Origin: a virus
Virus genome (UHGV): UHGV-0332389
Length of the DNA: 25,037 bases
Reading direction: 5' to 3' (one strand)
The number at the start of each line of letters is the position of its first letter. Positions within the stretch are counted from its first letter, which is position 1. Below are positions 102 through 25,037 of this stretch, piece after piece. The position numbers and the translations under genes are program-made. The notes under the pieces were generated by a model. The model saw only the letters and a program-made list of their open reading frames with translations. It was not told the DNA's origin and made no database searches.

Positions 102-656
102 TTATTTATCCCCTGCAGGAAACCTCTTATACAAAGTTGACACACCAACATCATAGATAATCGCCACCTTCTGGCGAGGAATGCCTGATGCAATTAATCG
201 CCCGGCCTGCGCCCATTGTTCTAGTGTAAGTTTGGGACGACGTCCCCCAATTCGTCCCTGTGCGCGAGCAGCTTCCAGTCCAGCTTTTGTTCGTTCAACA
301 ATCAGTTCTCGTTCCATTTCAGCCAGGGCACCCATCACATGAAAGAAAAAACGCCCCATCGGTGTGCTGGTATCAATAGCATCCGTCAGGCTGCGAAAAT
401 TAACGCCACGTTCGCGCAACTCCTCAACCAGAATGACCAGATGCCGCATACTACGCCCCAGCCGATCCAGCTTCCAGACAACCAGAGTATCACCTGCCGA
501 TAATGTCCTGAGCAGTTTTTTCAGTCCCGGCCTTTCGGACTTTGTACCGCTTATCTTGTCTTCAAAAATCAGCTCGCATCCTGCACAGTTCAGCGCATTA
601 CGTTGTAGATCTGTGTTCTGGTCATTTGTTGACACACGTACATAACCAATAAGCAT
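102..656 (-). CDS. pin: Serine recombinase, DNA invertase of the Pin/Gin/Hin/Cin family
   Basis: Translation MLIGYVRVSTNDQNTDLQ...GDTLVVWKLDRLGRS...VGVSTLYKRFPAGDK has the N-terminal catalytic serine motif and C-terminal HTH typical of Pin/Gin invertases. The ORF track starts 12 codons upstream, but the internal ATG at 656 has a GGGAGA Shine-Dalgarno about 7 nt upstream. Confidence 0.9.
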   Translation of the reverse strand: MLIGYVRVSTNDQNTDLQRNALNCAGCELIFEDKISGTKSERPGLKKLLRTLSAGDTLVVWKLDRLGRSMRHLVILVEELRERGVNFRSLTDAIDTSTPMGRFFFHVMGALAEMERELIVERTKAGLEAARAQGRIGGRRPKLTLEQWAQAGRLIASGIPRQKVAIIYDVGVSTLYKRFPAGDK

Positions 657-710
657 GGTAGATCTCCCTGACAAAAGCAGGAATGATGCCATTTGCTCGT
701 TATTTCTGCA

Positions 711-736
711 TTTTCATAAACGTTGGTTTGGGAGAA
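711..736. other. Left crossover site for the invertase (hix/gix-like 26 bp site)
   Basis: TTTTCATAAACGTTGGTTTGGGAGAA; its reverse complement shares the first 14 bp, including the central AA dinucleotide, with the site at 2650-2675. The sites are in inverted orientation. Confidence 0.6.
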
Positions 737-1189
737 GGCTCTGCATTACCTGTTGGTGTCCCTGTTCCGTGGCCTTCAGCCACTCCGCCAACAGGCTGGC
801 TGAAATGCAATGGTGCAGCTTTTTCTGCTGAAGAATACCCGGAACTGGCAAAGGCTTATCCGACAAATAAATTGCCTGATTTACGTGGTGAGTTTATTCG
901 CGGCTGGGATGACGGGCGCGGGGTTGACTCTGGACGAGGTTTGTTGACGGCGCAGGCGGAAACAAAGATAACTAACCACCACGGCAATGGCGGTAACGCT
1001 GATGATATTTCGGCTGGTGTCTCCGGTTCACCTCCCAAAAACTTTGTCAGAAACGCGGATTCGGCAGTTAATGCTGGTTCTGGTTTTACCGCTTTTGGCT
1101 CTGGAAATTTGACAATGAATGGTGTTACTTCTTATTTCGGTGTCCGTCCACGCAACATCGCATTTAACTACATTGTGAGGGCTGCATAA
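737..1189 (+). CDS. Silent alternative tail-fibre C-terminal cassette (variable part, promoterless in this orientation)
   Basis: ORF 683-1189 encodes ...GSALPVGVPVPWPSATPPTGWLKCNGAAFSAEEYPELAKAYP...LPDLRGEFIRGWDDGRGVD, resembling the receptor-binding C-terminus of Mu S-type fibres. The first about 18 codons of the tracked ORF span the crossover site and lie outside the segment, so the tracked start is not real. After inversion this would fuse to the constant N-terminus at 2676-2952. Confidence 0.6.
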   Translation, partial: GSALPVGVPVPWPSATPPTGWLKCNGAAFSAEEYPELAKAYPTNKLPDLRGEFIRGWDDGRGVDSGRGLLTAQAETKITNHHGNGGNADDISAGVSGSPPKNFVRNADSAVNAGSGFTAFGSGNLTMNGVTSYFGVRPRNIAFNYIVRAA

Positions 1190-1791
1190 TGGATAGCGCT
1201 GTATTAAATAGCGAGTTTATTGCCACGAAGGCGGGGGATATTACTGTCTATAATTATGATGGTGAAACACGGGAATATATTTCCATATCAACTGAATATC
1301 TTGCCGTTGGTGTCGGCATTCCGGCATGTTCCTGTTTAGATGCTCCAGGCGCATACAAAGCTGGTTATGCAATCTGCCGTTCTGCAGATTTTAAGTCATG
1401 GGAATATGTGCCAGACCATCGCGGTGAAATCGTCTTTAGCACCGAAACAGGAGAATCAAAAGAAATCACAGCTCCGGGTGATTACCCTAATAATACAACC
1501 ACTATCGCCCCATTAACGCCATACGATAAATGGGATGGTGAGAAATGGGTGACGGATACTGAGGCACAGCATAGCGCCGCAGTAGACGCGGCAGAAGCAC
1601 AGCGCCAGTCACTGATTGATGCTGCAATGGCTTCCATTAGTCTGATTCAGCTGAAATTACAGGCCGGACGGAAACTGACGCAGGCAGAAACAACCCGGCT
1701 TAACGCTGTGCTGGATTACATTGACGCGGTGACGGCAACAGATACCAGCACCGCGCCGAATGTCATCTGGCCTGAACTGCCGGAGGCGTAG
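1189..1791 (+). CDS. Tail fibre assembly protein (alternative copy, Tfa/U'-like), paired with the silent fibre cassette
   Basis: 200 aa ORF immediately following the alternative fibre cassette; C-terminus ...NVIWPELPEA parallels the ...DIEWPTPPAVQAR ending of the convergent Tfa copy. Confidence 0.75.
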   Translation: MDSAVLNSEFIATKAGDITVYNYDGETREYISISTEYLAVGVGIPACSCLDAPGAYKAGYAICRSADFKSWEYVPDHRGEIVFSTETGESKEITAPGDYPNNTTTIAPLTPYDKWDGEKWVTDTEAQHSAAVDAAEAQRQSLIDAAMASISLIQLKLQAGRKLTQAETTRLNAVLDYIDAVTATDTSTAPNVIWPELPEA

Positions 1792-2206
1792 GCCATTCAA
1801 TATCTGGAGCACTGGAGGGATCAACCAGTTCCAGTGCGTCCAGATAATCCAGCCATAAATTATATTGCTCCAGCTCGTTACCTTTCAGACGACCAATAGC
1901 AGCTTTGCCAGGCCACTGATGGGTGTTGATGTAGGTATTGGCTTCTGAAACCAAAGATATTTTTTTCATTTCAGCCATCAACACCTCATCCTCTTTTGAA
2001 GGCGGTGGGGAATTAATCCATATTGGCCGTCCTGAACTGTCAGCGCCAATTTCTTTCCCTTCTGGATGCAGCCCAAGAAATTGCTCATATGTTTCTCGGG
2101 TAATTTCAATAACATCATCTGGAAGCGTTCCCGCATCCTCATATTCTGGAAACAATTCTTGTAGATAAAAACTTTTACTTCCGGGTGAAAAGAATACTGA
2201 GTTCAT
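1763..2206 (-). CDS. Tail fibre assembly protein (expressed copy, Tfa/U-like)
   Basis: 147 aa ORF directly downstream of the tail fibre gene on the same strand; its 3' end overlaps the convergent copy by 29 bp. Confidence 0.75.
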   Translation of the reverse strand: MNSVFFSPGSKSFYLQELFPEYEDAGTLPDDVIEITRETYEQFLGLHPEGKEIGADSSGRPIWINSPPPSKEDEVLMAEMKKISLVSEANTYINTHQWPGKAAIGRLKGNELEQYNLWLDYLDALELVDPSSAPDIEWPTPPAVQAR

Positions 2207-2208
2207 TC

Positions 2209-2952
2209 TTACCGTCCAATGATTAACGCTGAGACGCTGGTATCTGAAGGAAAGGCTGCATTCAGTGGTTTGTCGACTTTGAATACAATCGTATTATTCC
2301 CCCGGACAGCGGCAAAAGAACAAACCGCCGTCGCGTATGAACCTGTAATATTACTGGATACACCGCCATAAGCTGTTGTTGATACCAGAGGGATAACGCC
2401 CAGCACCTTATTAGGAAATACAAAGGGCAATGTGGCTGTGGCAATATAAGACTTATTAGAACCTGTAATGGCATAAGCATTATCAGTCATTCCATTCATC
2501 GCCACTGGACCGCTTATACTTACAGTAACCATCTGAGTGATTAGCCCGTCAGGTTGACGAATCACAAAATTTCCATTGCCACCAGTAACCGTCCAGAAAG
2601 ACATATCAGGGATTTGGTTTTCCCCGTTGCCCACATTCCGTTTTGCCGCTTCTCCCAAACCAAGGTTTTCGAGAGCCGTTTTCACCGTGCCATCCGATTT
2701 GATATCGCCAAACGGATTCTTGCGGCTTAACAGCAGCGCGCGAAGCGCGGTAAGTAGCTGGTCGTGCCGCCCCTTCTCCAGGCTGGCACCGGACGCCTCC
2801 ACAACGCTGCAAAGCTCCTCCTGCAACATGTCAAAGTAGTCATCATCCAGATCGGTGGCAGGCGTGCCGGTCTGGGGGTTACCACGGGTAAAACCGTTCT
2901 TACCCGCGCCGAACTTATCCTTCTGCGCGGTTTTCGTGTCTATACGATGCAT
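2209..2952 (-). CDS. Tail fibre protein (Mu S-like): constant N-terminal part plus the currently selected variable C-terminal part
   Basis: 247 aa, [48 protein letters not shown]...; GGAG Shine-Dalgarno 7 nt upstream; the crossover site at 2650-2675 falls at codons for ENLGLGE. Confidence 0.8.
2650..2675. other. Right crossover site for the invertase (hix/gix-like), inside the tail fibre gene
   Basis: TTCTCCCAAACCAAGGTTTTCGAGAG; matches the remembered hixL sequence TTCTTGAAAACCAAGGTTTTTGATAA at most positions, including the central AA. Confidence 0.65.
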
Positions 2953-5549: not shown

Positions 5550-6628
5550 CAGAACGGGTCCTCCTGTACTCTGGCTTTTTTCTTTTTCCGCGCGCCGGGG
5601 TCTTCAGGTTCAGGCAGATAAGCATCAGGCGGGCCGACACGGATTTCCGTCAGGGTGCCGTTCTGGTCCTGAGTAAACGTGACTTCCGAAACAAGCAGTT
5701 CGGTATTGTCGAAACCACAGACCGGATCAAAGACAATCACCCGCTGGTTGGGCTGCCACAGCGTACCGTTACCCTGTCGCCAGCCCTGCACCACATAGGT
5801 GGTTTCATCCGTCCGCGCCGCCCGTTGCCGGGCTTCAAAGTCAGCACGCGCAATACAGCCTGCCCCCGTAGCCTGCCCTGTCTGCCTGATATACATCGGA
5901 CGGTAACGGGCAATAAATGCGTCCTCTGTGCGGGCCCGCAGCGCGGTGGTGGTGGCCTCACCGAAATCATCGTCGTTTCCGGCACGCTGCCCCGCCACCT
6001 GGTAAACAGAAAACCGCTCCCGGATACTCTTCTCCGTATCGCAGGAAAGGATGTTTTCCCCGAGTACCAGCGCGGTATGTGCCCGCGTTGAGCCAATACC
6101 GCCAATCACCAGCCTGCCGTGCGGGTCGTCGTAAGCCAGTGCCTGCTGCTGACCGAGTATTTTGTTGATTACCTCAATCACCGTTTCACCGTGATCAGGC
6201 TGAACATCAGGAATAACACCCGACGGCGCACCGCTGTTCACCACCTCAATGCCGAAAGGCGCAGCAAGCGCCTGCGCAATCTGTACCAGCGATCGTCCGT
6301 TAAACTGTGTCGGTTCGGCTGCACAGTCAATCAGGTCAGCGGTCAGACTGCGTCCGGCAATACCGGTGCTGACCGAACGGGCATCGTAACGAACGGGAGT
6401 CGCCTCCACCCAGCCGGTGATCACCAGCTCATCACCAATCAGCACTTCCACTTTTGAACCGTTTTTAATGCGCGGCTGAAGCGTGGTGATACCCTCATCT
6501 CCCGGCCACTGGCGAGTGATCTCCACACTGAAATCCCGCGCCAGCCGTTCAATACCGGCACCGATGCGCACCGATGTCCAGCCATTCCACTCCCGGCCAT
6601 TTACCCGTAGCGTGACATTGTCGTTCAT
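5549..6628 (-). CDS. Baseplate hub / tail protein, Mu gp44 (P)-like, P2 gpD-like
   Basis: 359 aa ORF with Lys-rich C-terminus (ARKKKKARVQEDPF); position downstream of the DNA circulation protein. Confidence 0.75.
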   Translation of the reverse strand: MNDNVTLRVNGREWNGWTSVRIGAGIERLARDFSVEITRQWPGDEGITTLQPRIKNGSKVEVLIGDELVITGWVEATPVRYDARSVSTGIAGRSLTADLIDCAAEPTQFNGRSLVQIAQALAAPFGIEVVNSGAPSGVIPDVQPDHGETVIEVINKILGQQQALAYDDPHGRLVIGGIGSTRAHTALVLGENILSCDTEKSIRERFSVYQVAGQRAGNDDDFGEATTTALRARTEDAFIARYRPMYIRQTGQATGAGCIARADFEARQRAARTDETTYVVQGWRQGNGTLWQPNQRVIVFDPVCGFDNTELLVSEVTFTQDQNGTLTEIRVGPPDAYLPEPEDPGARKKKKARVQEDPF

Positions 6629-7953
6629 TGCACTGGCACCTTCAGAGGGATCACCGGCACAAAGCCGGGATGCGTAATGGCATTACGCCGGATAATGTCC
6701 GCGTCACGCGCCGCGTTATCAAACCAGGTAGCCGCCAGCACCAGCGCGGGTAAAACCTCATCCGGTGTGCGCTGAATGATCCGTGCAGACTGTTCAAGGC
6801 GCGTGTTGATATCCGCATTCAGATCTGCTTTCACCCGGCGCAGCGCCAGAAACAGCGCATCACTGGTTGTACGGGACAACTCCTTATCAATTGCCGTATT
6901 CAGTGTGTCGCGAATGTCAGTCAGTTCTTCCCACGTCGGCAGGTCAACCGTGTTTTTCACCGCCGGTACATTGTTTAGTGCCGGATGCGTGACGGAAGGC
7001 CAGCCAGTGCTCTGCGCGGGTGTTGTTGCCTGCCCCACTGCGGAATTCTGCATCACCGCGGAAATTGTTGGCGCAGGCAATCGGGTGACGGCATACGCCG
7101 CTTCGCTGATTGCGGTCGTACGAAGGGTGCTGGCAACCACGTTACGCTGCTGCGTCGCCGTGGCGGTGGTTTTACTGTCCGTTTTCCAGACGCCGCGCGG
7201 TTGCAGATCGCTGCCGAGGCTGACACCGGAAAGCGTTTTGATCATGGTGACCAGGTCGCTGGCGTTACCATAAAGGCGTTTCCCGGTACGCCACATTTTC
7301 TGCACCTGCTCAACGAAATTTTTGCCTGACGATGGCGGCGGCAGAAGTACCGAGATATCACCCTGCAACAGCCTGGCGGCATCCGATACGGCAGAATCCA
7401 CCACTTTCATCGCATCAGAAACATACCCAAGCATTGTGCTGGCATTACCGATAACGTCGTTCTGCACAAAATCCGCCACGCCATCGATACTGAAACCGCT
7501 GAAGCTGTCACTGATGCAGTCATCCAGTGCAGAACAGGATGACATCAGCGTCTGCGCCGTCGCCACGCCTGATGTGGGGTAAGAGAGATCTCCCGCTTCG
7601 ACAAACTTCAGGTCAAAGCGGACAATACGCCCTTCACTCTTCGATGTGCTGACCCGAACTTCCCCGTCAACACAGACTTTCAACTCACCGTATGTCGGGT
7701 GGACAAGCGTGCCGGGACCGGGTTTATTCAGCGCGTCAATCAGGCGATCGCGCTGGTCAAAGCAGTCATCTCCCACCACATAAGCCGTGATGGACGGGCG
7801 GAAAGTGACTTTTCCCAGATCTTCGGTATAGGGTTTGTCGCGGTTCGGATATTCGTGTGTTTCCACACGACGGCCGGTTCCCGCACTTTCTTCTTCAACC
7901 TTAAACGGCACACCTCGAAATGACGCATCCTGAAGCCTGTCTTTCCACGTCAT
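6625..7953 (-). CDS. DNA circulation protein (Mu N/gp43-like)
   Basis: Contains MTWKDRLQDASFRGVPFKVEEES, typical of the Mu N family N-terminus. The tracked ORF begins at 8001 inside the AT-rich insertion; start is assigned to the internal ATG at 7953, though the ribosome-binding site is weak in either case. Confidence 0.8.
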   Translation of the reverse strand: MTWKDRLQDASFRGVPFKVEEESAGTGRRVETHEYPNRDKPYTEDLGKVTFRPSITAYVVGDDCFDQRDRLIDALNKPGPGTLVHPTYGELKVCVDGEVRVSTSKSEGRIVRFDLKFVEAGDLSYPTSGVATAQTLMSSCSALDDCISDSFSGFSIDGVADFVQNDVIGNASTMLGYVSDAMKVVDSAVSDAARLLQGDISVLLPPPSSGKNFVEQVQKMWRTGKRLYGNASDLVTMIKTLSGVSLGSDLQPRGVWKTDSKTTATATQQRNVVASTLRTTAISEAAYAVTRLPAPTISAVMQNSAVGQATTPAQSTGWPSVTHPALNNVPAVKNTVDLPTWEELTDIRDTLNTAIDKELSRTTSDALFLALRRVKADLNADINTRLEQSARIIQRTPDEVLPALVLAATWFDNAARDADIIRRNAITHPGFVPVIPLKVPVQ

Positions 7954-8063
7954 ATAAGTCCCATATTTATTATCAGTAGTAATATTTACTGGTAATGCCA
8001 TAATTTGTAGTGGTAGCCATTACCATTTGTAACTATATAAATTATTAGCATTAAGGTGATAAC

Positions 8064-8510
8064 ATGAAGAAATTATTAAAATGGATTTTATATATTTTCA
8101 TCGGGTTGGTGATTATTGGATATTTTGCAGGCAATAACGATAAAGGCTCTAATTCTTCATACTCATCCGATACGGAAGCTGCGGCACCGCAAAAAGAAAT
8201 CTACAACACTACTGCTCGACAGCTGTTTAAAGAGTATGAAGAAAATGAAGTCGCTACCGATGAACAGTTAAAAGGTAAATTAATCGCCGTTAGAGGTATC
8301 GTACAATCCATTGATAAGGACTTTACTGACTCTATAATTATTAAATTCAGAACTGAAAATGAATTCATGCCAGCAAGAATGGAGATGCAAGACTCTGAAA
8401 AATCAACAGCTGCTGCTCTTAAAAAAGGAGAACAAGTAACTGTTATTTGCGAAAAAATGTCCAGAATTGTCGGCTCCCCATCAGGCCGAAATTGCGTGTT
8501 CGCACAGTAA
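8064..8510 (+). CDS. Moron: membrane-anchored OB-fold-like protein of unknown function (resembles tRNA_anti-like / OB-fold putative lipoprotein family)
   Basis: 148 aa ORF on the opposite strand to all flanking tail genes, in a visibly AT-rich block; AAGGTGA Shine-Dalgarno 5 nt upstream of the ATG; N-terminal hydrophobic anchor MKKLLKWILYIFIGLVIIGYFAG followed by a soluble domain. Confidence 0.7.
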   Translation: MKKLLKWILYIFIGLVIIGYFAGNNDKGSNSSYSSDTEAAAPQKEIYNTTARQLFKEYEENEVATDEQLKGKLIAVRGIVQSIDKDFTDSIIIKFRTENEFMPARMEMQDSEKSTAAALKKGEQVTVICEKMSRIVGSPSGRNCVFAQ

Positions 8511-8542: not shown

Positions 8543-10375
8543 TTACCTAAATCTGGTGTACCCAACATCGTGATTAATATCAATGCCACTGGAACGTGTT
8601 TCCGTAACCCGCATACCTGGTGGCATATTCATAAATGAAACCTTGATCTCGCCATCAACTTTTGGCGCGATAGCTTTGTTAATCATGAAGGGATTCGAGC
8701 CTGTGGCATCGGAGGCGTTGTTTGCCTGAGCCGGATCCACCACCGGATAAGGAGTGTATCCCCGTGGCGGTATTCCCGTCCCATAAGCATCATAAGCACC
8801 CGCGCCCAACTGCGCCGAGTTAATGGCATCGACCGTGTCACCGGAACTGTCGGTAAACCATTCAATAATCGGCTTCAGCTTATCCCACATATCCTGAAAC
8901 CACTTAACAACCGGTCCCCAGTTATTGATCACCATCCCCAGCGGCGACCAGGCAAAAACCTTCTTCAGAAGTTCCCAACCTGCCTCAAAATAAGGACCAA
9001 TGGTTTCCCAGAGCTTCTTGAAATAAGGTCCGACAACATCCCAGTTAGTGATAATTAATCCCGCAGCCAGAGCAATCGCCGTCGCAATCATGCCAATCGG
9101 CGTCATCGACATAATCCTGCTGACAATACTGATGGCACTGCCCACGCCCATCAATCCCAGTTTCAGAATCGCAAGACCGGCAGCAAGCCCGACGACGCCG
9201 CGAATAACCCGGGGATTTTCATCCGCAAACTTCGTGAATTTCTCCCCCAACTCCCCCAGCCATTGTGTGATATTTTTAGCGTCACCAGAAAATGCGCCGC
9301 CAATAGCCGCAAGGCCGTTAGTTGCGGTCCCTGTCATTGCCTCCCACAGGTTGGACAGCGTACCAAGCTGTGCCTGAACACGTTTATTCAGGCTGGCCTG
9401 TTTATTCATCTTCTGCTGGATCTGATCGTAGCCATCCTTTCCTTTATCGATTAGTGCATTGACCACCTGAAGGGTTTCGGCATCATCACCAAATATTGCC
9501 TTAAGTACACCTGTTCGCTTAACGTCGGTCAGTTTTCGCAGCTTTGCCAGTTGCCTGAACATGTTATCAAGACCGCCAAAACTTCCTTTGCCGTCAGTAA
9601 AATCGAGCTGTACCCCGAGTTTCTGGCGGGCCATAACTTTATTAACGTCCCTGATTTTCTTAACGCTTAATCCGGACTGGATAACTTTTCGCAGGGCATT
9701 ACCTGCCGACTCCCCGTTCATCCCCATCTGATCCATCATGACGCTGATGGGGGCAAGGCTCTGTGCAGCCTGAAGACCATCCTTGTTCACCATCTTCAGA
9801 ACAGAACTGGTTTTAGTGAAGAAGGACAACATGTTGGTATCGTCAACGCCCAGATAAAACGCCTTCTGGATAGTGTCGAACAGCCCCATCATGTCTTCTG
9901 ACGCCGTTCCGGTAGCATCCTGCATCTTTGCAGCAAACTCAGCAGCCGCTTCCGGTGTTTTTTTCAGTTGTACCGCAAGATAAGCTGTCGCTTTACCCAC
10001 ACCACCCAGAATGTTTTCTGCCGGGATCCCCTGACGCACCAGCATCTGCATCATGTTCTGGAAATCAGCCGTTGTACCAGGTAGCTGGTTACCCAGGCCA
10101 ATAGCCAGTTTATTGATGTCCTGAAAGCTCTTTCCAACCTCGCCGTTCGCATCCATCATGGCGACTTTCAGCCCGGTGGCGGCGTTTTCCTGATCGGCAT
10201 AAGATTTCAGGGAAAGCGTCAGACCCGCTGCCAGTCCGCCACCAAGCGCCAGCCCACCCTGTGACGCTTCTTCCGCCTGGCGTTTAAATCCCCGGATTTT
10301 CTTTTGCATTTTCGACAGCGCGGGAGAAAGCCTGTCGACACCGGTGATCAACGCCTTAAGCTCAAATTCAGCCAT
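8543..10375 (-). CDS. Tail tape measure protein
   Basis: 610 aa ORF, helical and Gly/Ala-rich with hydrophobic central stretches, directly downstream of the tail assembly chaperone and its frameshift extension. Confidence 0.85.
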   Translation of the reverse strand: MAEFELKALITGVDRLSPALSKMQKKIRGFKRQAEEASQGGLALGGGLAAGLTLSLKSYADQENAATGLKVAMMDANGEVGKSFQDINKLAIGLGNQLPGTTADFQNMMQMLVRQGIPAENILGGVGKATAYLAVQLKKTPEAAAEFAAKMQDATGTASEDMMGLFDTIQKAFYLGVDDTNMLSFFTKTSSVLKMVNKDGLQAAQSLAPISVMMDQMGMNGESAGNALRKVIQSGLSVKKIRDVNKVMARQKLGVQLDFTDGKGSFGGLDNMFRQLAKLRKLTDVKRTGVLKAIFGDDAETLQVVNALIDKGKDGYDQIQQKMNKQASLNKRVQAQLGTLSNLWEAMTGTATNGLAAIGGAFSGDAKNITQWLGELGEKFTKFADENPRVIRGVVGLAAGLAILKLGLMGVGSAISIVSRIMSMTPIGMIATAIALAAGLIITNWDVVGPYFKKLWETIGPYFEAGWELLKKVFAWSPLGMVINNWGPVVKWFQDMWDKLKPIIEWFTDSSGDTVDAINSAQLGAGAYDAYGTGIPPRGYTPYPVVDPAQANNASDATGSNPFMINKAIAPKVDGEIKVSFMNMPPGMRVTETRSSGIDINHDVGYTRFR

Positions 10376-20456: not shown

Positions 20457-20813
20457 TCACTTGAGCCGCTCACGCGCGGTCTTCGCTGCGTGACACGACC
20501 AGCACAGGCTTTCAAGGTTGCTGTCTTCATCAGTACCGCCGTGGGCCTTCGCCTTGATGTGGTCCACGCAGGACGCCTGCTTCACTATCGCCTGCCGTAG
20601 ATGGTTCTGACACAGCCCTTTGTCGCGCTTAAGTATCCGCTCCCGGATGACTTCCCACTTTGTTCCGTATCCTCGCTGCTGCCGTGATTGACCAGGCTTG
20701 TAGGACTTCCAGCCTTCACCTTTGTGATTTTCACAGTAGCCAGATGGGTCTGTTGTGGTGTTGTGACAGCCGCGAACACGGCAAGCCTTTGGTGTGCGCG
20801 GTGGCATATTCAC
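20457..20813 (-). CDS. HNH endonuclease (terminase-associated)
   Basis: 118 aa with CxxC...H...CxxC/H spacing (CRVRGCHN...CENH...CQNHL...CVDHIKAKAHGG...CWSCH); GGGAG Shine-Dalgarno upstream. Confidence 0.85.
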   Translation of the reverse strand: MNMPPRTPKACRVRGCHNTTTDPSGYCENHKGEGWKSYKPGQSRQQRGYGTKWEVIRERILKRDKGLCQNHLRQAIVKQASCVDHIKAKAHGGTDEDSNLESLCWSCHAAKTARERLK

Positions 20814-20870
20814 TCCCTAAAAAACGTATAGCATTATCGCAGACACTTAATGAATGCCTGCTGAATGCCA

Positions 20871-21068
20871 CTAATCGTCGAGTTGCAATACACCGTGCTC
20901 AAGTGACTCTGAGTAAGCGATCAGCCCTGTGTATTCAGGGATAATCTCGCCATCATCCGCTTCGAATTCCGGGATTGTACCAGTGGTGATGGTGTATTGG
21001 GGCTGACCATCTTCTTTCGCGAATGCTGCTAGGTCTTCAATCTGCTTAGCTGTAAGAACTACTGCCAT
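20871..21068 (-). CDS. Small strongly acidic hypothetical protein (65 aa)
   Basis: MAVVLTAKQIEDLAAFAKEDGQPQYTITTGTIPEFEADDGEIIPEYTGLIAYSESLEHGVLQLDD; start taken at the second ATG, with GAGGT 7 nt upstream. Confidence 0.4.
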   Translation of the reverse strand: MAVVLTAKQIEDLAAFAKEDGQPQYTITTGTIPEFEADDGEIIPEYTGLIAYSESLEHGVLQLDD

Positions 21069-21085
21069 GCTCATACCTCAGTTGT

Positions 21086-21109
21086 TAAAAAGCCCCGCTA
21101 TTGCGAGGC
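21086..21109 (-). terminator. Rho-independent terminator downstream of the 91 aa membrane protein gene
   Basis: Minus-strand GCCTCGC-AATA-GCGGGGC followed by TTTTTAAC. Confidence 0.5.
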
Positions 21110-21132
21110 TATGATTGACTAAAGTGATGCTG

Positions 21133-21408
21133 TCAGGTGTGGGTCCAAATGAATTTAACAATCCCAATAATGCTAGCCAGAACGCCAAAACCAAAAATAA
21201 ATTGACCACATACCCCTATGATTCCCGATGCAATGGCACCGGCATTTGTCTGAGCATTTTCGTTTATGCTCGCCCCCACTAGATACATAATCAAACCAAC
21301 TATGAGAGATGCGATAATCCAATGTTCCACTGCTAATACAATTACAATGCTCAAAATATCTGCTAAACCATCACTATGACCACTCACTGCATATCCTTGC
21401 TTTGACAT
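21133..21408 (-). CDS. Small two-TM Gly-rich membrane protein of unknown function (accessory, AT-rich)
   Basis: 91 aa with two hydrophobic helices and GxxxG-like motifs (AIASGIIGVCGQFIFGFGVLASIIG); located after Rz; weak ribosome-binding site. Confidence 0.45.
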   Translation of the reverse strand: MSKQGYAVSGHSDGLADILSIVIVLAVEHWIIASLIVGLIMYLVGASINENAQTNAGAIASGIIGVCGQFIFGFGVLASIIGIVKFIWTHT

Positions 21409-21474
21409 TTGAAAAATTCATCACTGGATTATAATTGTTTACACCCTTCATAGTCGTTCGAATATGATAAAAAA

Positions 21475-22011
21475 TCAATTGTGGGGGATAGCGTTATTTG
21501 ACTCTCTCAACGAGTCGTAAATACGTTCACACGTCATCCCGGCGGTGTAGCGTTCGTCAGCGATTCCAGCATAACGTTTAGCTTCTGCTGCAATATCTCC
21601 GAGCATGTCGGCGAACATTCCGGCGTCAGCGTCGGTTGTTTTGCTTCGGACGGCAGCGGCAAGATCAGCGGTGTGCTTTGCGGCGTCCAGGCGTGCGGCA
21701 AGCTTTGTTGCTTCGGTACGCAACTGGCTAACAGTGGCAGACAGGCCAGCAGCAGTGGCAGCAGATTTAGCGGCTTGTGCTTGTGCATCTTTTACAGCCT
21801 CATCACGGGCAATTATGCGCCCTTGTTCAATCCAGCGTGCGGCAGTCTGCGCGTTCGCTTCCTGTGAAGATTCCATGCTATTGTGGTCAGCCCACTTCTT
21901 TTGCCAGCCCCGCTCACTCCAGATGTTCCCGGCAAGAAATGCACCAGCCAACATCAGCAAAACAATGATTGTTTTCCACCGCGCCTGAACAGAAGCAAAG
22001 ACCGCTGTCAT
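21475..22011 (-). CDS. Rz-like i-spanin
   Basis: 178 aa, N-terminal TM helix ([20 protein letters not shown]) then Ala/Gln-rich coiled-coil periplasmic domain; start overlaps the endolysin stop. Confidence 0.75.
21534..21788 (-). CDS. Rz1-like o-spanin (lipoprotein), fully embedded in Rz in another frame
   Basis: 84 aa, [23 protein letters not shown]... with lipobox LASC followed by a Pro-rich mature region. Confidence 0.65.
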
Positions 22012-22625
22012 ACCAGCAACGCCGCCCGCGCTTTGTTATAACGACTATTTCTGTCAGCCAGTCCATTCTGGCCACCGTTGATGATCTGCGTTACACGGAC
22101 AACATCACCTGAATACATCAGACAACCACGTAATGTGAAATACCATGCAGCAGAACGGGCTGCATGTTTCTCCTGTGTCAGCAACTCTGGTGTGCTGATC
22201 AGATCCAACTTCAGCGCCGCACCGCATTTGGCGTAGTTCTCGCGGCCGGTGATTTGAAGCAGGCCACGACCGCGATATTTCCAGCCGTCACCCTGGCTGT
22301 TATTCCCCATGCGGTCACCATAAACCAGATTGGCTATTTGCGGCTGGTGGGCTACCTGCTTACCATCGACACGCCCCAGCATTTCACACTGATAAGGCGT
22401 CAGGCGTTTACTAAAGGTTTTCTTCAGCCCGTCTACCGAGTAGTTGAAGCTTTCCACCAGCGAGGTAAAACCAGCAGATTCATGCCCAACTTGTGCAATG
22501 AACATGGCCTGATCGTTAACTGCTGTGATTCCAAACTCTTTCATTGCAGCATCAATGTGCGGAAACCAGCGCGCAGCCAGCCCGGCGCTAATACCAGCCG
22601 CCTTTTGAAATAATTGTTGGTTCAT
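22008..22625 (-). CDS. Endolysin, glycoside hydrolase family 19 (chitinase-like lysozyme)
   Basis: 205 aa; motifs ...[13 protein letters not shown]...[15 protein letters not shown]... resemble GH19 phage endolysins. Confidence 0.85.
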
Positions 22626-22906
22626 TAGTGCCTCAGATGATCAACCAGACGTGCAACGTTGCCTCTGACGGCCACCAGCACGGAAAGAAAAATAGTATTC
22701 GCCACGATAATGAGCCATGAGGAGTGAGGATAAATCCCACAGAGATAGGCCAACGGAACAGCACTGTATGTAACAGTAATCAGCCAGGCTAAACGTGAAA
22801 CCCAAGGACGATGCCGCGAATCACCACGACGATAAAACATCAGAGTAATAACAACACAAGCACATAACAGCGCATTAATAGTTGCTGTCGGGTCATTTAG
22901 CTCCAC
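22625..22906 (-). CDS. Holin/antiholin-like membrane protein
   Basis: 93 aa with three hydrophobic segments, directly upstream of the endolysin gene. Confidence 0.55.
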   Translation of the reverse strand: MELNDPTATINALLCACVVITLMFYRRGDSRHRPWVSRLAWLITVTYSAVPLAYLCGIYPHSSWLIIVANTIFLSVLVAVRGNVARLVDHLRH

Positions 22907-23279
22907 CTGAACCTCCCCGGCGCGTTATGAGCGCCACCAGCGAGACGATATCCTGATTATTCAGGAACGTCAGGATTTTAACGGCTAAAGCAGAGACGAT
23001 TACGGCACCAATAGCATCCAGAGGTTTATCACTGTATCCGGTCAAGTTTGCCAGCTTGGAGCCAACCAACCCAGAGCAAAGGATCCCAGCAATATATGAC
23101 ACGATAAAATATGCCAGTCGACGCGATGCACTCAGATCTGCTGCTGTTGCTATATAGAATACAGCCCCTGCAAATGCGCCAAATACAACGCCGTAATCAG
23201 TTCCGGTCAGCAGTCCATAAATACTAGCGCCCGTTAGGGCTCCACCAGCTAACCCTGTGCCGGAAATCGGATCGGACAT
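22893..23279 (-). CDS. Putative holin
   Basis: 128 aa from MSDPISGTGLAGGALTGASIYGLL... with hydrophobic helices and a charged C-terminus; AGAGGTGG Shine-Dalgarno upstream. The tracked ORF starts 22 codons earlier with no ribosome-binding site. Confidence 0.6.
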   Translation of the reverse strand: MSDPISGTGLAGGALTGASIYGLLTGTDYGVVFGAFAGAVFYIATAADLSASRRLAYFIVSYIAGILCSGLVGSKLANLTGYSDKPLDAIGAVIVSALAVKILTFLNNQDIVSLVALITRRGGSGGAK

Positions 23280-23387
23280 TAGCCACCTCTTATTGCAGTG
23301 AGTCCTCTCAGAAATAGAAATGAGAGGAATAAAAAAGGCCACCATTTGGCAGCCATAGAATTGATGTAATTATAACTAATTCATTAA

Positions 23388-24194
23388 CTATTTCTTAATG
23401 ATGCTATTTAACATTTCTAATGCAAAAAGCAACATGGAGCTAATAAAATATAATATAACCGCACTGGCAATCGCTCCAATTATAGCCTGGACACTCCAGT
23501 GAAAGTAATTTTTACCATTAATAACAAACTTAACACTAGGAAACAAAAAGTCGATAAGCTTAATTATTAATGGAATAGCAAAGCTCCATAAGTTCGAAAA
23601 CAAAATAAAGATACAAATAAATGATAAAGCAAATGCACCATCGATTGATAGTTTTGGCGCCAGTTTTGAGGCTGTCCATAAGCTAAGCAAAAAGCCAACT
23701 GTCACACCTGAAATCTGGATACTTAACATAGTCCAAGCTGTTCTAAAAAATCTAAATTTATTTTTGCACTTGTTAAGTAAATCCTGAATCGTAATCCATA
23801 ACGAGTCAACCCACTCATTATCTTCCGATGCTACAATCATTGTGCTGCTATTTGAATTCCTCTCATCAATTCGTAGCTCCATCCAAGATCCATTCATCCT
23901 GTTAGACTGTCGACTTTGATAAGTTTCAATAGTAAAAATTATTTGATCAATCCTAGTGGCCTGTCTAAAGTATTTCACAAGCTCACCGATAGAATCAACT
24001 TTATATCCCTTACCATCGAACAAAATAAAAAAAACACATTGAGCACAAACTTCCCTACTTTCCTTTTGAGCTTGCTCATTCATTTTAACGCAGCGTTCGA
24101 CAATTGCCGTGCTTAAGCTAATCAAGCTATCTTCATTTATAGAAACACCTGAAATATTCTTGCTTCTGTAAAAATATGACACTTTCGATTCCAC
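23388..24194 (-). CDS. Accessory membrane protein of unknown function: N-terminal soluble domain of about 160 aa plus three C-terminal TM helices (candidate exclusion or abortive-infection effector)
   Basis: 268 aa ORF in a strongly AT-rich block; C-terminal hydrophobic segments WTMLSIQISGVTVGFLLSLW, FALSFICIFILFSNLWSFAIPLIIKLIDFLF, AIIGAIASAVILYFISSMLLFAL. The first in-frame start is GTG with no clear Shine-Dalgarno, so the start is uncertain. Confidence 0.5.
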   Translation of the reverse strand: MESKVSYFYRSKNISGVSINEDSLISLSTAIVERCVKMNEQAQKESREVCAQCVFFILFDGKGYKVDSIGELVKYFRQATRIDQIIFTIETYQSRQSNRMNGSWMELRIDERNSNSSTMIVASEDNEWVDSLWITIQDLLNKCKNKFRFFRTAWTMLSIQISGVTVGFLLSLWTASKLAPKLSIDGAFALSFICIFILFSNLWSFAIPLIIKLIDFLFPSVKFVINGKNYFHWSVQAIIGAIASAVILYFISSMLLFALEMLNSIIKK

Positions 24195-24359
24195 TCCGCA
24201 CCAGTCTCGATTTAGCGCAGGTTAACATAACCACTTCATTGGTAGAAGAAAAGAACTCTTCTTGTCAGAAAGCTACTGTGATATCCCTAAACCTGCAGAT
24301 GATACAGAACAAAATTTAAGCATCAATTGTAGGCGATTTTAAATTCACTTTACAGTTTA

Positions 24360-24377
24360 GGCTGCCAATTGGCAGCC
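24360..24377. promoter_or_regulatory. Perfect 18 bp palindrome between the two accessory genes (candidate operator)
   Basis: GGCTGCCAATTGGCAGCC, 15 bp downstream of the 89 aa gene stop; no U-tract on either strand. Confidence 0.4.
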
Positions 24378-24391
24378 GATTGAAGCAGAAA

Positions 24392-24661
24392 TCAATGAGT
24401 GCTCATCGATGAATTTTTTTCAGCGCCAATCTCACTCAAAAAAGCAAAACCTTTTGACGTTATCTCATTAGCAATCAATCCACCTTCGGCAGATTTGCTT
24501 CGTATAACATCGATAAAACCTATATCAGCAAGATCTGAAATAGCAAAATTAACCTCTTTTGCTGAGAGATGAGGTAATGATGCAGCCTGAATTCTAGAAT
24601 CCTTTGGCTGCAATTCATTCACTCGACGTAGTATTTCAAGATGGATAGAGGTCAGTTTCAT
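24392..24661 (-). CDS. Small helical protein, possible winged-helix DNA-binding regulator (first gene of accessory cassette)
   Basis: 89 aa ORF with AGGAG Shine-Dalgarno 7 nt upstream and an extended -10 promoter upstream; AT-rich. Confidence 0.6.
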   Translation of the reverse strand: MKLTSIHLEILRRVNELQPKDSRIQAASLPHLSAKEVNFAISDLADIGFIDVIRSKSAEGGLIANEITSKGFAFLSEIGAEKNSSMSTH

Positions 24662-24698
24662 AATGTTCTCCTGTTTTTAATGTTGTTTTACAGAAAAC

Positions 24699-24735
24699 AT
24701 TATAACACATTGATTTTGATGTAGATTGAATAGAA
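24699..24735 (-). promoter_or_regulatory. Sigma70-like promoter with extended -10 (TGTTATAAT) driving the accessory cassette
   Basis: Minus-strand TATAAT at 24699-24704 preceded by TGT; weak -35 region; located about 35 nt upstream of the 89 aa gene start. Confidence 0.4.
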
Positions 24736-24743
24736 AAAAACCA

Positions 24744-24766
24744 TAAAAAAACCTCGCAATAGCGAG
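24744..24766 (-). terminator. Rho-independent terminator (possible tR'-like late terminator) upstream of the accessory cassette
   Basis: Minus-strand CCTCGC-TATT-GCGAGG followed by TTTTTTT; about 110 nt downstream of the stop of the partial upstream gene. Confidence 0.55.
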
Positions 24767-24875
24767 GTCGTAAAAATCGTTCAACGATAGATACACAAGC
24801 CCCATCGTTGAGAAAATCTTATCCATATTTTTTGAGAAACACAAGCATTATGTCGTTATCTTCGGCGAAAATCGC

Positions 24876-25037
24876 TTATCTCGTCACCCTTCTCAATTGT
24901 GCTTCAGCGTAAGCTTCCTCCTGCCAGCACTTTGTAACCAGTTTATCAATGACATCTGCATATCCTTTGTACCACTGATAATCCGTCAGGTCTGGTACCA
25001 GCTTCTGGACATGAAGCCGCGCCAGTGTGGTTGGTAA
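24876..25037 (-). CDS. 3' end of a gene running into the window from the right (partial; identity unknown, possibly a late regulator)
   Basis: Open minus-strand frame from the window edge to TAA at 24876-24878; C-terminal 53 aa ...DYQWYKGYADVIDKLVTKCWQEEAYAEAQLRRVTR. Confidence 0.35.
   Translation of the reverse strand, partial: LPTTLARLHVQKLVPDLTDYQWYKGYADVIDKLVTKCWQEEAYAEAQLRRVTR

Follow-up and report, generated by a model that had tools for sequence, protein, structure and literature searches.

Two stacked putative single-gene morons in the Q-to-holin slot of virus genome UHGV-0332389

Layout of the cargo region

The virus genome UHGV-0332389 was analysed as a stretch of 25,037 nucleotides (nt), one strand read 5′ to 3′, and the whole of this stretch is referred to as the window. 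Two of its genes are the subject here, one encoding a small protein of 89 amino acids (aa) and the other an inner-membrane protein of 264 aa. They lie between the gene of a Q-type antitermination protein and the first holin gene. The region is accessory cargo in the hypervariable Q-to-holin slot, and its genetic architecture is very probably that of two independent single-gene morons stacked on one another. Morons are cargo units of the lambdoid phages HK97 and HK022 that consist of a promoter, a gene and a terminator, and gp15 of HK97 is an exclusion moron.

Every gene in the cargo-to-lysis region is read on the minus strand. In this direction, the end of the antitermination gene is followed by a non-coding block, a hairpin, the element TGTTATAAT, the open reading frame (ORF) of the 89-aa protein and the palindrome GGCTGCCAATTGGCAGCC. 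Then come ~180 nt of non-coding DNA, the membrane protein ORF ending at 23388, a second hairpin with a T run, and the holin gene (23279–22893), on the 3′ side of which are a second holin gene and the genes for a GH19 endolysin and a DUF2514 spanin. The G+C content is 35–37% over 23330–24745 (0.35–0.37 across 23201–24800), compared with ~54% in the rest of the window and 0.52–0.60 in the structural genes. The features are listed below in reading order; homologous loci in other genomes and contigs bear L numbers where they have to be told apart.

24876–25037, minus strand: 3′ end of the gene for a Q-type antitermination protein; TAA stop codon at 24878–24876; the gene runs off the window; RefSeq name "antitermination protein" in F9792 and other carriers.
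24804–24844, minus strand: late-promoter-like segment, with TTGTGT (24844–24839), a 17-nt spacer, TAAGAT (24821–24816), CTCAACGATGGGG and AACGAT (24809–24804).
24743–24769, minus strand: tR′-like terminator of a short late leader transcript, with stem-loop 24769–24750 and a T run; from a terminator scan, RNA folding and relatives.
24699–24707, minus strand: putative extended −10 promoter element TGTTATAAT of the small gene; from the sequence and its conservation in L066.
24392–24661, minus strand: cargo gene 1, 89 aa, WP_000779379.1, phrog_32916; AGGAG at 24672–24668, 6 nt before the ATG.
24360–24377, minus strand: perfect 18-base-pair (bp) palindrome GGCTGCCAATTGGCAGCC; apparent left copy of the small-gene terminator stem, without T run.
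24232–24359, minus strand: adapter segment of unclear origin; holds promoter-like TTGATG-16-TATCAT (24326–24299; 9/12 matches in a promoter scan).
24225–24231, minus strand: GTTATGT, apparent relic of the 5′ core site (GTTRRRY) of an integron cassette; marks where the membrane-gene module begins on its left side.
23388–24182, minus strand: cargo gene 2, 264-aa inner-membrane protein, WP_001459463.1, phrog_30208; GTG start codon, GGAG at 24197–24194.
23329–23354, minus strand: predicted intrinsic terminator GGCTGCCAAATGGTGGCC and T run before the holin gene; from a terminator scan; stem 23354–23337; conserved in L009 and L047.
22893–23279, minus strand: first holin gene, Phage_holin_8 (Pfam E = 4e-34; RefSeq); downstream boundary of the slot, not cargo.

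A first-pass annotation, made from the letters alone, had read the region as AT-rich, with a terminator hairpin upstream of the cargo, an 89-aa protein preceded by a good Shine-Dalgarno sequence, an 18-bp perfect palindrome between the two genes, and a second protein with a soluble N-terminal domain and three C-terminal transmembrane (TM) helices. All of these were found, the last by hydropathy and an AlphaFold2 model. Its statement that neither protein could be assigned to lysis, morphogenesis or an enzyme family also agrees with scans of Pfam, NCBIfam and PHROGs, which gave no such match.

Position in a variable slot

Cargo at least 99.4% identical to the window was found in 41 of 5426 complete Escherichia coli genomes. 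The holin pair of the window is present in 229 E. coli genomes, 188 of which lack the cargo, and prophages with this pair carry other cargo at the same place, namely a hypothetical protein of 85, 198 or 182 aa or a DUF5677 protein. The loci with unrelated cargo in the slot are L020–L023, L052 and L053. About 246 further E. coli genomes match only positions 24746–24860 of the window, with 80–88% identity and always just downstream of an antiterminator gene. In UTI89 and STEFF_1, the matching segment directly follows the same kind of antiterminator gene and unrelated cargo comes next.

Alignment of five prophages indicated that the promoter-like block is kept and that homology is gone immediately past the T run of the hairpin. 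The late-leader hairpin is preserved by compensatory changes in four other prophages, and TAAGATTTTCTCAACGATGGG in front of it appears to resemble the −10 element and the pause-inducing initial transcribed region of lambda PR′ that are used by Q (PR′/qut). The cargo starts exactly where homology with the ~246 prophages ends, just past the terminator behind the antiterminator gene. Since homology ends right after the late leader terminator, the cargo sits at the position of stx in Shiga toxin (Stx) phages, in which stx lies in the Q–S interval. The accessory position in this moron hotspot had been proposed from the sequence, with a comparison of related prophages suggested as a check, and both the homology break and the variable contents of the slot bear it out.

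In E. coli F9792, the host element is a prophage at tRNA-Thr beside proA; its early and lysis genes are lambdoid, its head is of the HK97 type and its tail of the Mu type. Another carrier is a decayed CPS-53-like prophage remnant of E. coli GZM7 (L049, NZ_CP129279.1 1643361–1654921). This remnant has a truncated Q gene and no head or tail genes any more, but the two cargo genes and the lysis genes are intact in it. What it shares near-identically with the window corresponds to 22863–25037, and divergence rises to ~17% beyond this block.

Separate distribution of the two genes

A word-indexed search with the small protein returned near-identical relatives only. By tblastn, homologues with 34–37% identity were found in two Klebsiella phages, in both of which the small-gene homologue stands alone between a Q-like gene and the holin gene. 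IMG/VR, searched with a pattern from an alignment of these three small proteins, yielded 31 loci, 11 with the same cargo and 20 diverged (L066–L085, 35–51% identity). In the diverged loci, a gene for 79 aa stands alone in the slot, flanked by DUF968 and an antiterminator-sized gene on one side and by holin- and endolysin-sized genes on the other. The membrane family is absent from these loci (tblastn with 100 family members, no match in 20 of 20). Together with the Klebsiella phages, the small gene is therefore the sole slot cargo in 22 diverged phage loci (20 viral contigs and 2 Klebsiella phages).

The membrane gene, too, is found apart from the small gene. Its direct upstream neighbour is an N6_N4 methyltransferase gene in L005, L007, L009, L010 and L047, and an unrelated 66-aa ORF in the prophage L004. 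Prophage copies of the membrane gene always stand just before the holin gene, and the gene is also present outside phages, including as an integron cassette in environmental bacteria. Because the small gene is found alone in the slot elsewhere and the membrane gene is found elsewhere without it, the two genes are independently mobile. The first-pass annotation had described a self-contained two-gene cassette; this view finds no support in the 22 diverged small-gene loci without a membrane gene or in the membrane-gene loci with unrelated neighbours or none. The small protein would be a separate DNA-binding factor rather than an obligate partner of the membrane protein.

Palindrome and probable insertion scar

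The stop codon of the small gene in L066 is followed by GGCTGCCATTCGGTGGCC (GGCTGCC..GGTGGCC), a T run and the holin leader CCCCTCATTCTGAGAGGACTTACAGCAAT...ATGTCCGATCCG. In the window, this string of hairpin, T run and leader follows the membrane gene and not the small gene, and behind the small gene are a copy of the hairpin without the T run and then unrelated DNA. The two hairpin copies (24360–24377 and 23337–23354) form a direct repeat with 84% identity, 1023 nt apart. The adapter at 24232–24359 is absent from L066 and also from L009 and L047, in which homology to the window starts at 24231. The simplest reading is that a module of ~1 kb (24359–23355) was inserted at the terminator of the small gene. 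The palindrome would then be an orphaned terminator stem; nothing requires an operator role for it, and it may attenuate or stabilise the small-gene transcript.

Promoters and terminators

Folding of the RNA gave −13.7 kcal/mol (z = −5.2) for the upstream hairpin at 24769–24750, −14.9 kcal/mol (z = −4.4) for the palindrome hairpin at 24377–24360, and −11.4 kcal/mol (z = −2.5) for the pre-holin hairpin at 23354–23337. The terminator before the holin gene is conserved in both L009 and L047, with a compensatory change of the stem from G·U to A-U in L047. Scans with generic consensus patterns found no excess over shuffled sequence (6 promoters vs 6.7 expected, 2 terminators vs 1.5), and the promoter and terminator calls are consequently based on what relatives have kept. 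L066, with a small protein of only 51% identity, retains the promoter block CAATCTAC.TCAAAATCAAT.TGTTATAAT, and the small-gene homologues of the Klebsiella type have TGGTAAAAT at the position of the extended −10 element. The minus-strand extended −10 promoter of the first-pass annotation is a putative promoter within this conserved block. A search of Rfam over 23200–25037 gave nothing significant. An inverted repeat spanning the −10 element and start codon of the small gene was considered and set aside; it is not conserved in L066 and probably arose by chance.

The second terminator at 23354–23337 is predicted to close the region and to insulate the holin gene from transcription of the cargo. 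Within the adapter, the site TTGATG-16-TATCAT is a putative promoter for the membrane gene.

The membrane protein

The true start of the membrane gene is the GTG at 24182 (264 aa) and not a codon at 24194. Distant homologues start with ATG at the residue aligned to this GTG, RefSeq uses the same start, and its AAAGTG context is conserved in L009, a 78%-identical homologue. The GGAG at 24197–24194 lies 11 nt before the start, indicating that the gene is intact and has a ribosome-binding site. The ratio of nonsynonymous to synonymous substitution rates (dN/dS) between the window and L009 is 0.16, which indicates a functional gene under purifying selection. The earlier doubt about its intactness, raised over a GTG start without a Shine-Dalgarno sequence, is thereby removed. 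When 23388–24182 of the window was compared with L009 6034–6831, the synonymous rate (dS) was 1.41 in the N-terminal domain and 0.37 in the membrane part. This split suggests either a gene made mosaic by recombination or a faster-evolving putative sensor domain.

A full search with a hidden Markov model (HMM) defined a family of 230 clusters, 127 of them with E ≤ 1e-30 and nearly all with a length of 255–270 aa. The word-index homology search underreports this family, with 9 matches against the 230 clusters of the HMM search. No match worth noting was obtained for any family member in Pfam, NCBIfam, PADLOC or the sequences of the Protein Data Bank (PDB), and a PDB sequence search with a profile of 100 members found nothing. 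The PHROGs match is phrog_30208, to which no function is assigned. The membrane gene had no match in the phage collection, by either megablast or tblastn, and none among plasmids by tblastn, and the two RefSeq accessions are absent from searchable papers and from the DefensePredictor supplements. The first-pass annotation had named clear homology to a lysis accessory or housekeeping membrane protein as evidence against its view, and none appeared in the Pfam and PHROGs scans. By these comparisons, the protein appears to represent an undescribed family without a detectable relative of known function.

The AlphaFold2 model calculated from 100 sequences has a mean predicted local distance difference test (pLDDT) score of 93.9 and a predicted template modelling (pTM) score of 0.84. 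It consists of a β-β-α-β-β-α-β-β-β-α domain (residues 1–138), a short helix, and three long helices (149–177, 183–213, and 226–263), with a short strand (217–219) between the second and third. A fold search with this confident model returned nothing convincing. Five Lys/Arg residues stand just before TM1, which places the N-terminal domain (residues 1–148) in the cytoplasm according to the positive-inside rule. The most conserved residues are Asp7, Arg54, Asp56, Gly59, Ala75, Glu79, Arg80, Gly98 and Trp124 in the N-terminal domain, Gln156, Gly159 and Ser167 in TM1, and Phe188, Ser196, Asn197 and Trp199 in TM2. TM3 is poorly conserved, and a cytoplasmic loop has conserved Pro215 and Phe219. The polar conservation in TM1 and TM2 suggests a helix-helix or pore-lining surface.

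Three of the conserved positions are altered in the enterobacterial phage clade. Residues 7, 54 and 80 are Asp, Arg and Arg in 86–95% of the family, and the phage clade has Ser/Asn, Leu/Tyr/Trp and Gln/Lys, respectively (Ser7, Leu54 and Gln80 in the window; codons 24164–24162, 24023–24021 and 23945–23943). These changes possibly reflect an altered ligand or altered regulation after capture by phages.

Apparent integron origin of the membrane module

The window and L009 become homologous exactly at 24231, the G of GTTATGT (GTTATGC in L009), so that the 5′ boundary of the membrane module in the window falls on a GTTRRRY core site. When both sequences were aligned with nine cassette homologues flanked by attC sites, GTTATG was invariant at the 5′ boundary and nothing was conserved upstream of it. 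Among 37 non-enterobacterial loci, 16 have the stop codon within G[CT][AG]TAAC followed by a GC-rich imperfect hairpin ending in GTT, 15 have TTATGC 28–67 nt before the start, and 11 have both features; TTATGC is estimated to occur at that position by chance in ~1 locus. The motifs correspond to the inverse core (RYYYAAC) and the core (GTTRRRY) of attC recombination sites. At L025 (Gallionella), an attC-like site is visible by eye and the upstream neighbour is a Pfam "Integron cassette protein". Many loci of relatives are arrays of small same-strand ORFs, as is typical of cassette arrays. On these features, about half of the distant or environmental relatives appear to be integron gene cassettes flanked by attC sites.

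The cassette-type relatives among L025 (5880–6880), L028 and L092–L110 have GCATAAC at the stop codon, a hairpin running to GTTRRRY, and GTTATGC ~30 nt before the start. Their hosts include Gallionella, Thiobacillus, Methyloversatilis and Methylobacter. The upstream regions of homologues, inspected for a conserved RNA or operator, have nothing in common beyond the GTTATG core site and the ribosome-binding region. A candidate extended −10 element, TGnTAACCT, ~40 nt upstream of the membrane gene was rejected, as it is better explained as the core site GTTATGT/GTTATGC. The window itself is a prophage late region and not an integron array; no search for integrase genes was made. We infer that the phage membrane module arose from an integron cassette and that the attC site was lost on the way.

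The 89-aa protein

The 89-aa protein has a full-length match to phrog_32916, a PHROG of no assigned function. Its match to Pfam DUF2513 is weak (E = 2.4e-4, 21.8 bits vs a cut-off of 29.6, residues 9–78), and it also matches HTH_45 weakly; a Klebsiella homologue has a weak DUF2513 match as well (E = 5e-3). A PDB sequence search with the small protein found no match, and its single-sequence structure model was uninformative (pLDDT 54). From these profile matches, it is probably a winged-helix DNA-binding protein. It is like DUF2513 and small winged-helix proteins in length and in the weak profile match over most of its residues, but its score is below the Pfam gathering threshold and DUF2513 itself is of no known function; no functional literature on DUF2513 was found.

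Other variable segments of the window

A gene at 8064–8510 (plus strand) encodes a 148-aa OB-fold protein with an N-terminal membrane anchor. It is on the opposite strand in an island of 34% G+C, between the DNA-circularisation gene (6625–8001) and the tape-measure gene (8543–10375), and looks like another moron, inside the tail module. A Pin-type site-specific recombinase gene (102–692, minus strand) adjoins opposed tail-fibre/assembly genes (683–1791, plus strand; 1763–2952, minus strand), and 102–2952 is an invertible tail-fibre segment for host-range switching, comparable to the segments in Mu and e14. An internal stop codon interrupts the recombinase ORF in F9792 but not in the window. 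Downstream of the endolysin gene, 20568–22063 has no alignment to the otherwise 98%-identical F9792 prophage, which makes the spanin region a variable block. The DUF2514 i-spanin gene (22011–21475) has an embedded lipoprotein ORF (21788–21534, lipobox LLASC), which is probably the o-spanin gene.

Discussion

The arrangement can be accounted for by two successive acquisitions. The older unit would be the 89-aa gene with its own promoter and, originally, its own terminator directly before the holin gene. The second unit, with the membrane gene, would have been inserted immediately 3′ of the terminator stem of the first and have duplicated the hairpin. The left copy would have lost its T run and become the palindrome, and the right copy would have kept it and still shield the holin gene. 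The 128-nt adapter (24359–24232) may supply a promoter to an originally promoterless cassette gene. In the lysogen, sigma-70 promoters would allow Q-independent expression of the cargo that stops at 23354–23337. During lytic growth, Q-modified polymerase would pass all three hairpins, and both cargo genes would be the first late genes. The membrane protein, sufficient by itself, may guard the lysogen against other phages, either through a block to genome entry or through collapse of the membrane once its cytoplasmic domain senses infection. Taken as a whole, with two stacked units, an integron-derived membrane gene and protection acting at the membrane, we regard this account as evenly balanced between right and wrong.

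The role of the membrane protein as a candidate for phage exclusion or abortive infection is put forward tentatively. Repeated capture in a prophage cargo slot, with elements that would suit expression by the lysogen, the autonomy of the single gene, carriage in integrons and retention in the GZM7 remnant are suggestive of defence. According to Kieffer et al. (bioRxiv 10.1101/2024.07.02.601719), at least one third of the mobile-integron cassettes of unknown function confer phage resistance, and about one third of those resistance cassettes contain transmembrane helices. Defence-like neighbours of the membrane gene elsewhere include AbiEi/AbiEii (L016 and L018), GmrSD_N+HEPN with TumE (L002), SocA_Panacea (L008), HigB-like/HTH_37 (L029) and TIR-like proteins (L014). 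A further step, that these proteins form a new family of single-protein membrane immunity factors in which a new cytoplasmic sensor fold is joined to a three-helix pore or blocking module, and which circulates in integrons and was captured by prophages core site included, is doubtful in our estimate.

At L014 (8001–9468), a Bacteroidota contig resembling a conjugative transposon, a 223-aa TIR-like protein of the CAP12/Pycsar type is encoded 38 nt after a distant family member, with a second TIR_2 protein further downstream. At no other locus is there a hint of a partner gene.

Several observations weigh against this account. All 41 E. coli copies carry both genes, so that a functional link within this lineage is possible. 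There is no recognisable attC hairpin in the window, with only 33 nt between the membrane-gene stop codon and the terminator, and the integron origin accordingly rests on the 7-nt core site and the coincident homology boundary. The defence-database check that the first-pass annotation had called for was negative: PADLOC-DB v2.0.0, which covers defence systems described up to 2023, had no family at E ≤ 1 for either protein, and 100 members of the membrane family gave only scattered single weak matches in it. At 13 reference-genome loci, the neighbours are mostly housekeeping genes (for succinate dehydrogenase, ABC transporters, and queuosine and pantothenate synthesis) and few are defence-like, which makes guilt by association weak there. 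Finally, Asp7, Arg54 and Arg80 are replaced in the phage clade, so that the phage and cassette clades may not have the same activity.

The joint presence of both genes in the 41 E. coli genomes, and in 11 viral contigs that carry either gene at high identity, could also mean that they form an obligate two-gene defence or exclusion system, with the 89-aa protein as regulator or antitoxin, the membrane protein as effector and the palindrome, which is perfect and intergenic, as operator. Such a system would find parallels in L004, where a small helix-turn-helix-like ORF (66 aa) lies ~200 nt before the membrane gene, and in L002, where a MarR-like gene lies 186 nt before it. However, these two upstream proteins are not detectably related to the 89-aa protein, and that of L002 is paired with a TumE toxin. 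Linkage in E. coli is a matter of recent common descent, as the copies there have at least 99% identity. Of the diverged small-protein homologues, 22 of 22 lack the membrane gene, and most membrane-protein homologues lack any such partner. With the palindrome accounted for as a duplicated terminator stem, we consider an obligate system improbable. The independent stacking of two units is preferred, and the remaining alternatives concern what the membrane protein does.

A physiological function unrelated to phages, for example as a channel for ions or small molecules or as a membrane protein of the stress response, which would help the host in some environmental condition and be ordinary integron or moron cargo, is unlikely in our judgement. 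Most relatives belong to Beta- and Gammaproteobacteria, Nitrospira and Bacteroidota of groundwater, sediment and other environments, where the gene is often amid housekeeping genes, and integron cassettes encode many functions other than defence (10.64898/2026.03.17.712381). The faint, non-significant matches of the soluble domain to CorA/Mrs2 (E ~0.5–1), with a layout of an α/β domain followed by long helices, and the conserved polar residues of TM1 and TM2 would also fit a channel. Yet no similarity to any transporter family was found, the gene is distributed very sparsely and in patches and has no conserved partner in an operon, several contexts adjoin Abi and toxin-antitoxin genes, and prophages have repeatedly captured the gene in a slot typical of lysogenic conversion and defence. 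Its toxin-antitoxin neighbours (HigB-like/HTH_37, TumE/MarR-like, RelB/YafQ, and Panacea modules) would suit a toxin-like addiction element that stabilises cassette arrays and prophages, with a membrane activity that would kill or arrest any cell losing control over it. Chromosomal integrons and prophages are rich in such modules, and some integron cassettes for membrane proteins prove toxic to new hosts or impose a cost on them (bioRxiv 10.1101/2024.07.02.601719). There is little probability in this explanation either: no conserved antitoxin partner or antisense RNA was found, with a null Rfam result and no upstream conservation past the core site, the known type I membrane toxins are far smaller, and the gene is solitary in most loci. 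A role in the lytic cycle, as a lysis timer, an antiholin-like regulator or a late membrane remodeller, would explain the position directly before the holin gene, which holds in every phage locus, and the gene would belong to the early part of the Q-dependent late transcript. But two unrelated holin types follow it (Phage_holin_8 and Phage_holin_3_7 here, Phage_holin_2_1 in L004), 188 of the 229 E. coli genomes with the same holin pair do without it, and a terminator separates it from the holin gene. As most family members are outside phages and no lysis family was matched in Pfam or PHROGs, such a role is very improbable.

The Q-to-holin slot houses the Shiga toxin genes, and its other cargo therefore bears on the evolution of E. 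coli pathogens and their prophages. The locus shows how cargo builds up when new DNA enters at a terminator hairpin. Its history further suggests that phage morons can be made from promoterless integron cassettes, which would link two large pools of mobile adaptive genes that are usually studied apart; if an immunity family was indeed captured from integrons, the cassette pool and phage morons would be joined by a direct genetic bridge. As a single gene of 264 aa that is confidently modelled and under purifying selection, the membrane protein offers a well-defined candidate that can be screened cheaply for phage resistance. Should it prove to be a defence gene, it would represent a new sensor/effector architecture; if not, it is an unexplained conserved membrane protein that phages and integrons have repeatedly acquired.

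P22 SieA and T4 Imm are inner-membrane superinfection-exclusion proteins. The membrane protein is like them in being a prophage-encoded inner-membrane protein that needs no partner gene and may act at DNA entry, but it has no homology to them, carries a large conserved cytoplasmic domain of 148 aa, and is widespread outside phages. Transmembrane effectors of signalling defence systems, such as the Cap14/Cap15-type effectors of cyclic-oligonucleotide-based antiphage signalling systems (CBASS) and PycTM of Pycsar, likewise fuse a soluble sensor-like domain to a small transmembrane module, a design of the kind that the first-pass annotation had in view. Here, however, the sensor domain is N-terminal and of an unrelated fold, and no cyclase, nucleotidyltransferase or other signal-generating gene is adjacent in the window or in the examined loci. 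Among the 100 family members compared with PADLOC, no effector match was convincing; one member matched the model of a 2TM effector (E = 0.006) and one that of a TIR effector (E = 1e-4).

Relatives of the membrane gene resemble the phage-resistance cassettes called BRiCs (for example BrcWGS21 and Deva) in being single-gene, attC-flanked cassettes for transmembrane proteins without a known domain (bioRxiv 10.1101/2024.07.02.601719). BRiCs confer phage resistance, one of them apparently by hindering genome injection (bioRxiv 10.1101/2024.07.02.601719). Unlike them, the membrane family is located on environmental chromosomes and not on plasmid-borne mobile integrons. No sequence relationship was found, and the motif strings of the family are absent from the supplement of that paper. 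The copy in the window is prophage-borne and has lost attC.

The closest parallel in arrangement is offered by the lambdoid morons (for HK97 gp15, see PMC11364771). As with these, the cargo follows the Q-dependent late promoter and terminator and precedes the holin gene, has a deviant G+C content, comes with promoter-like elements and terminators for each unit, is missing from close relatives, and could be expressed in the lysogen and, by read-through, late. It differs in that two units are stacked, the second inserted at the terminator hairpin of the first and apparently derived from an integron cassette, and in that neither cargo protein falls into a characterised family. Both kinds of element, morons and membrane proteins borne on cassettes, were already known, and what is of most interest here is the insertion scar, the apparent transfer from integron to phage, and a well-modelled orphan protein.

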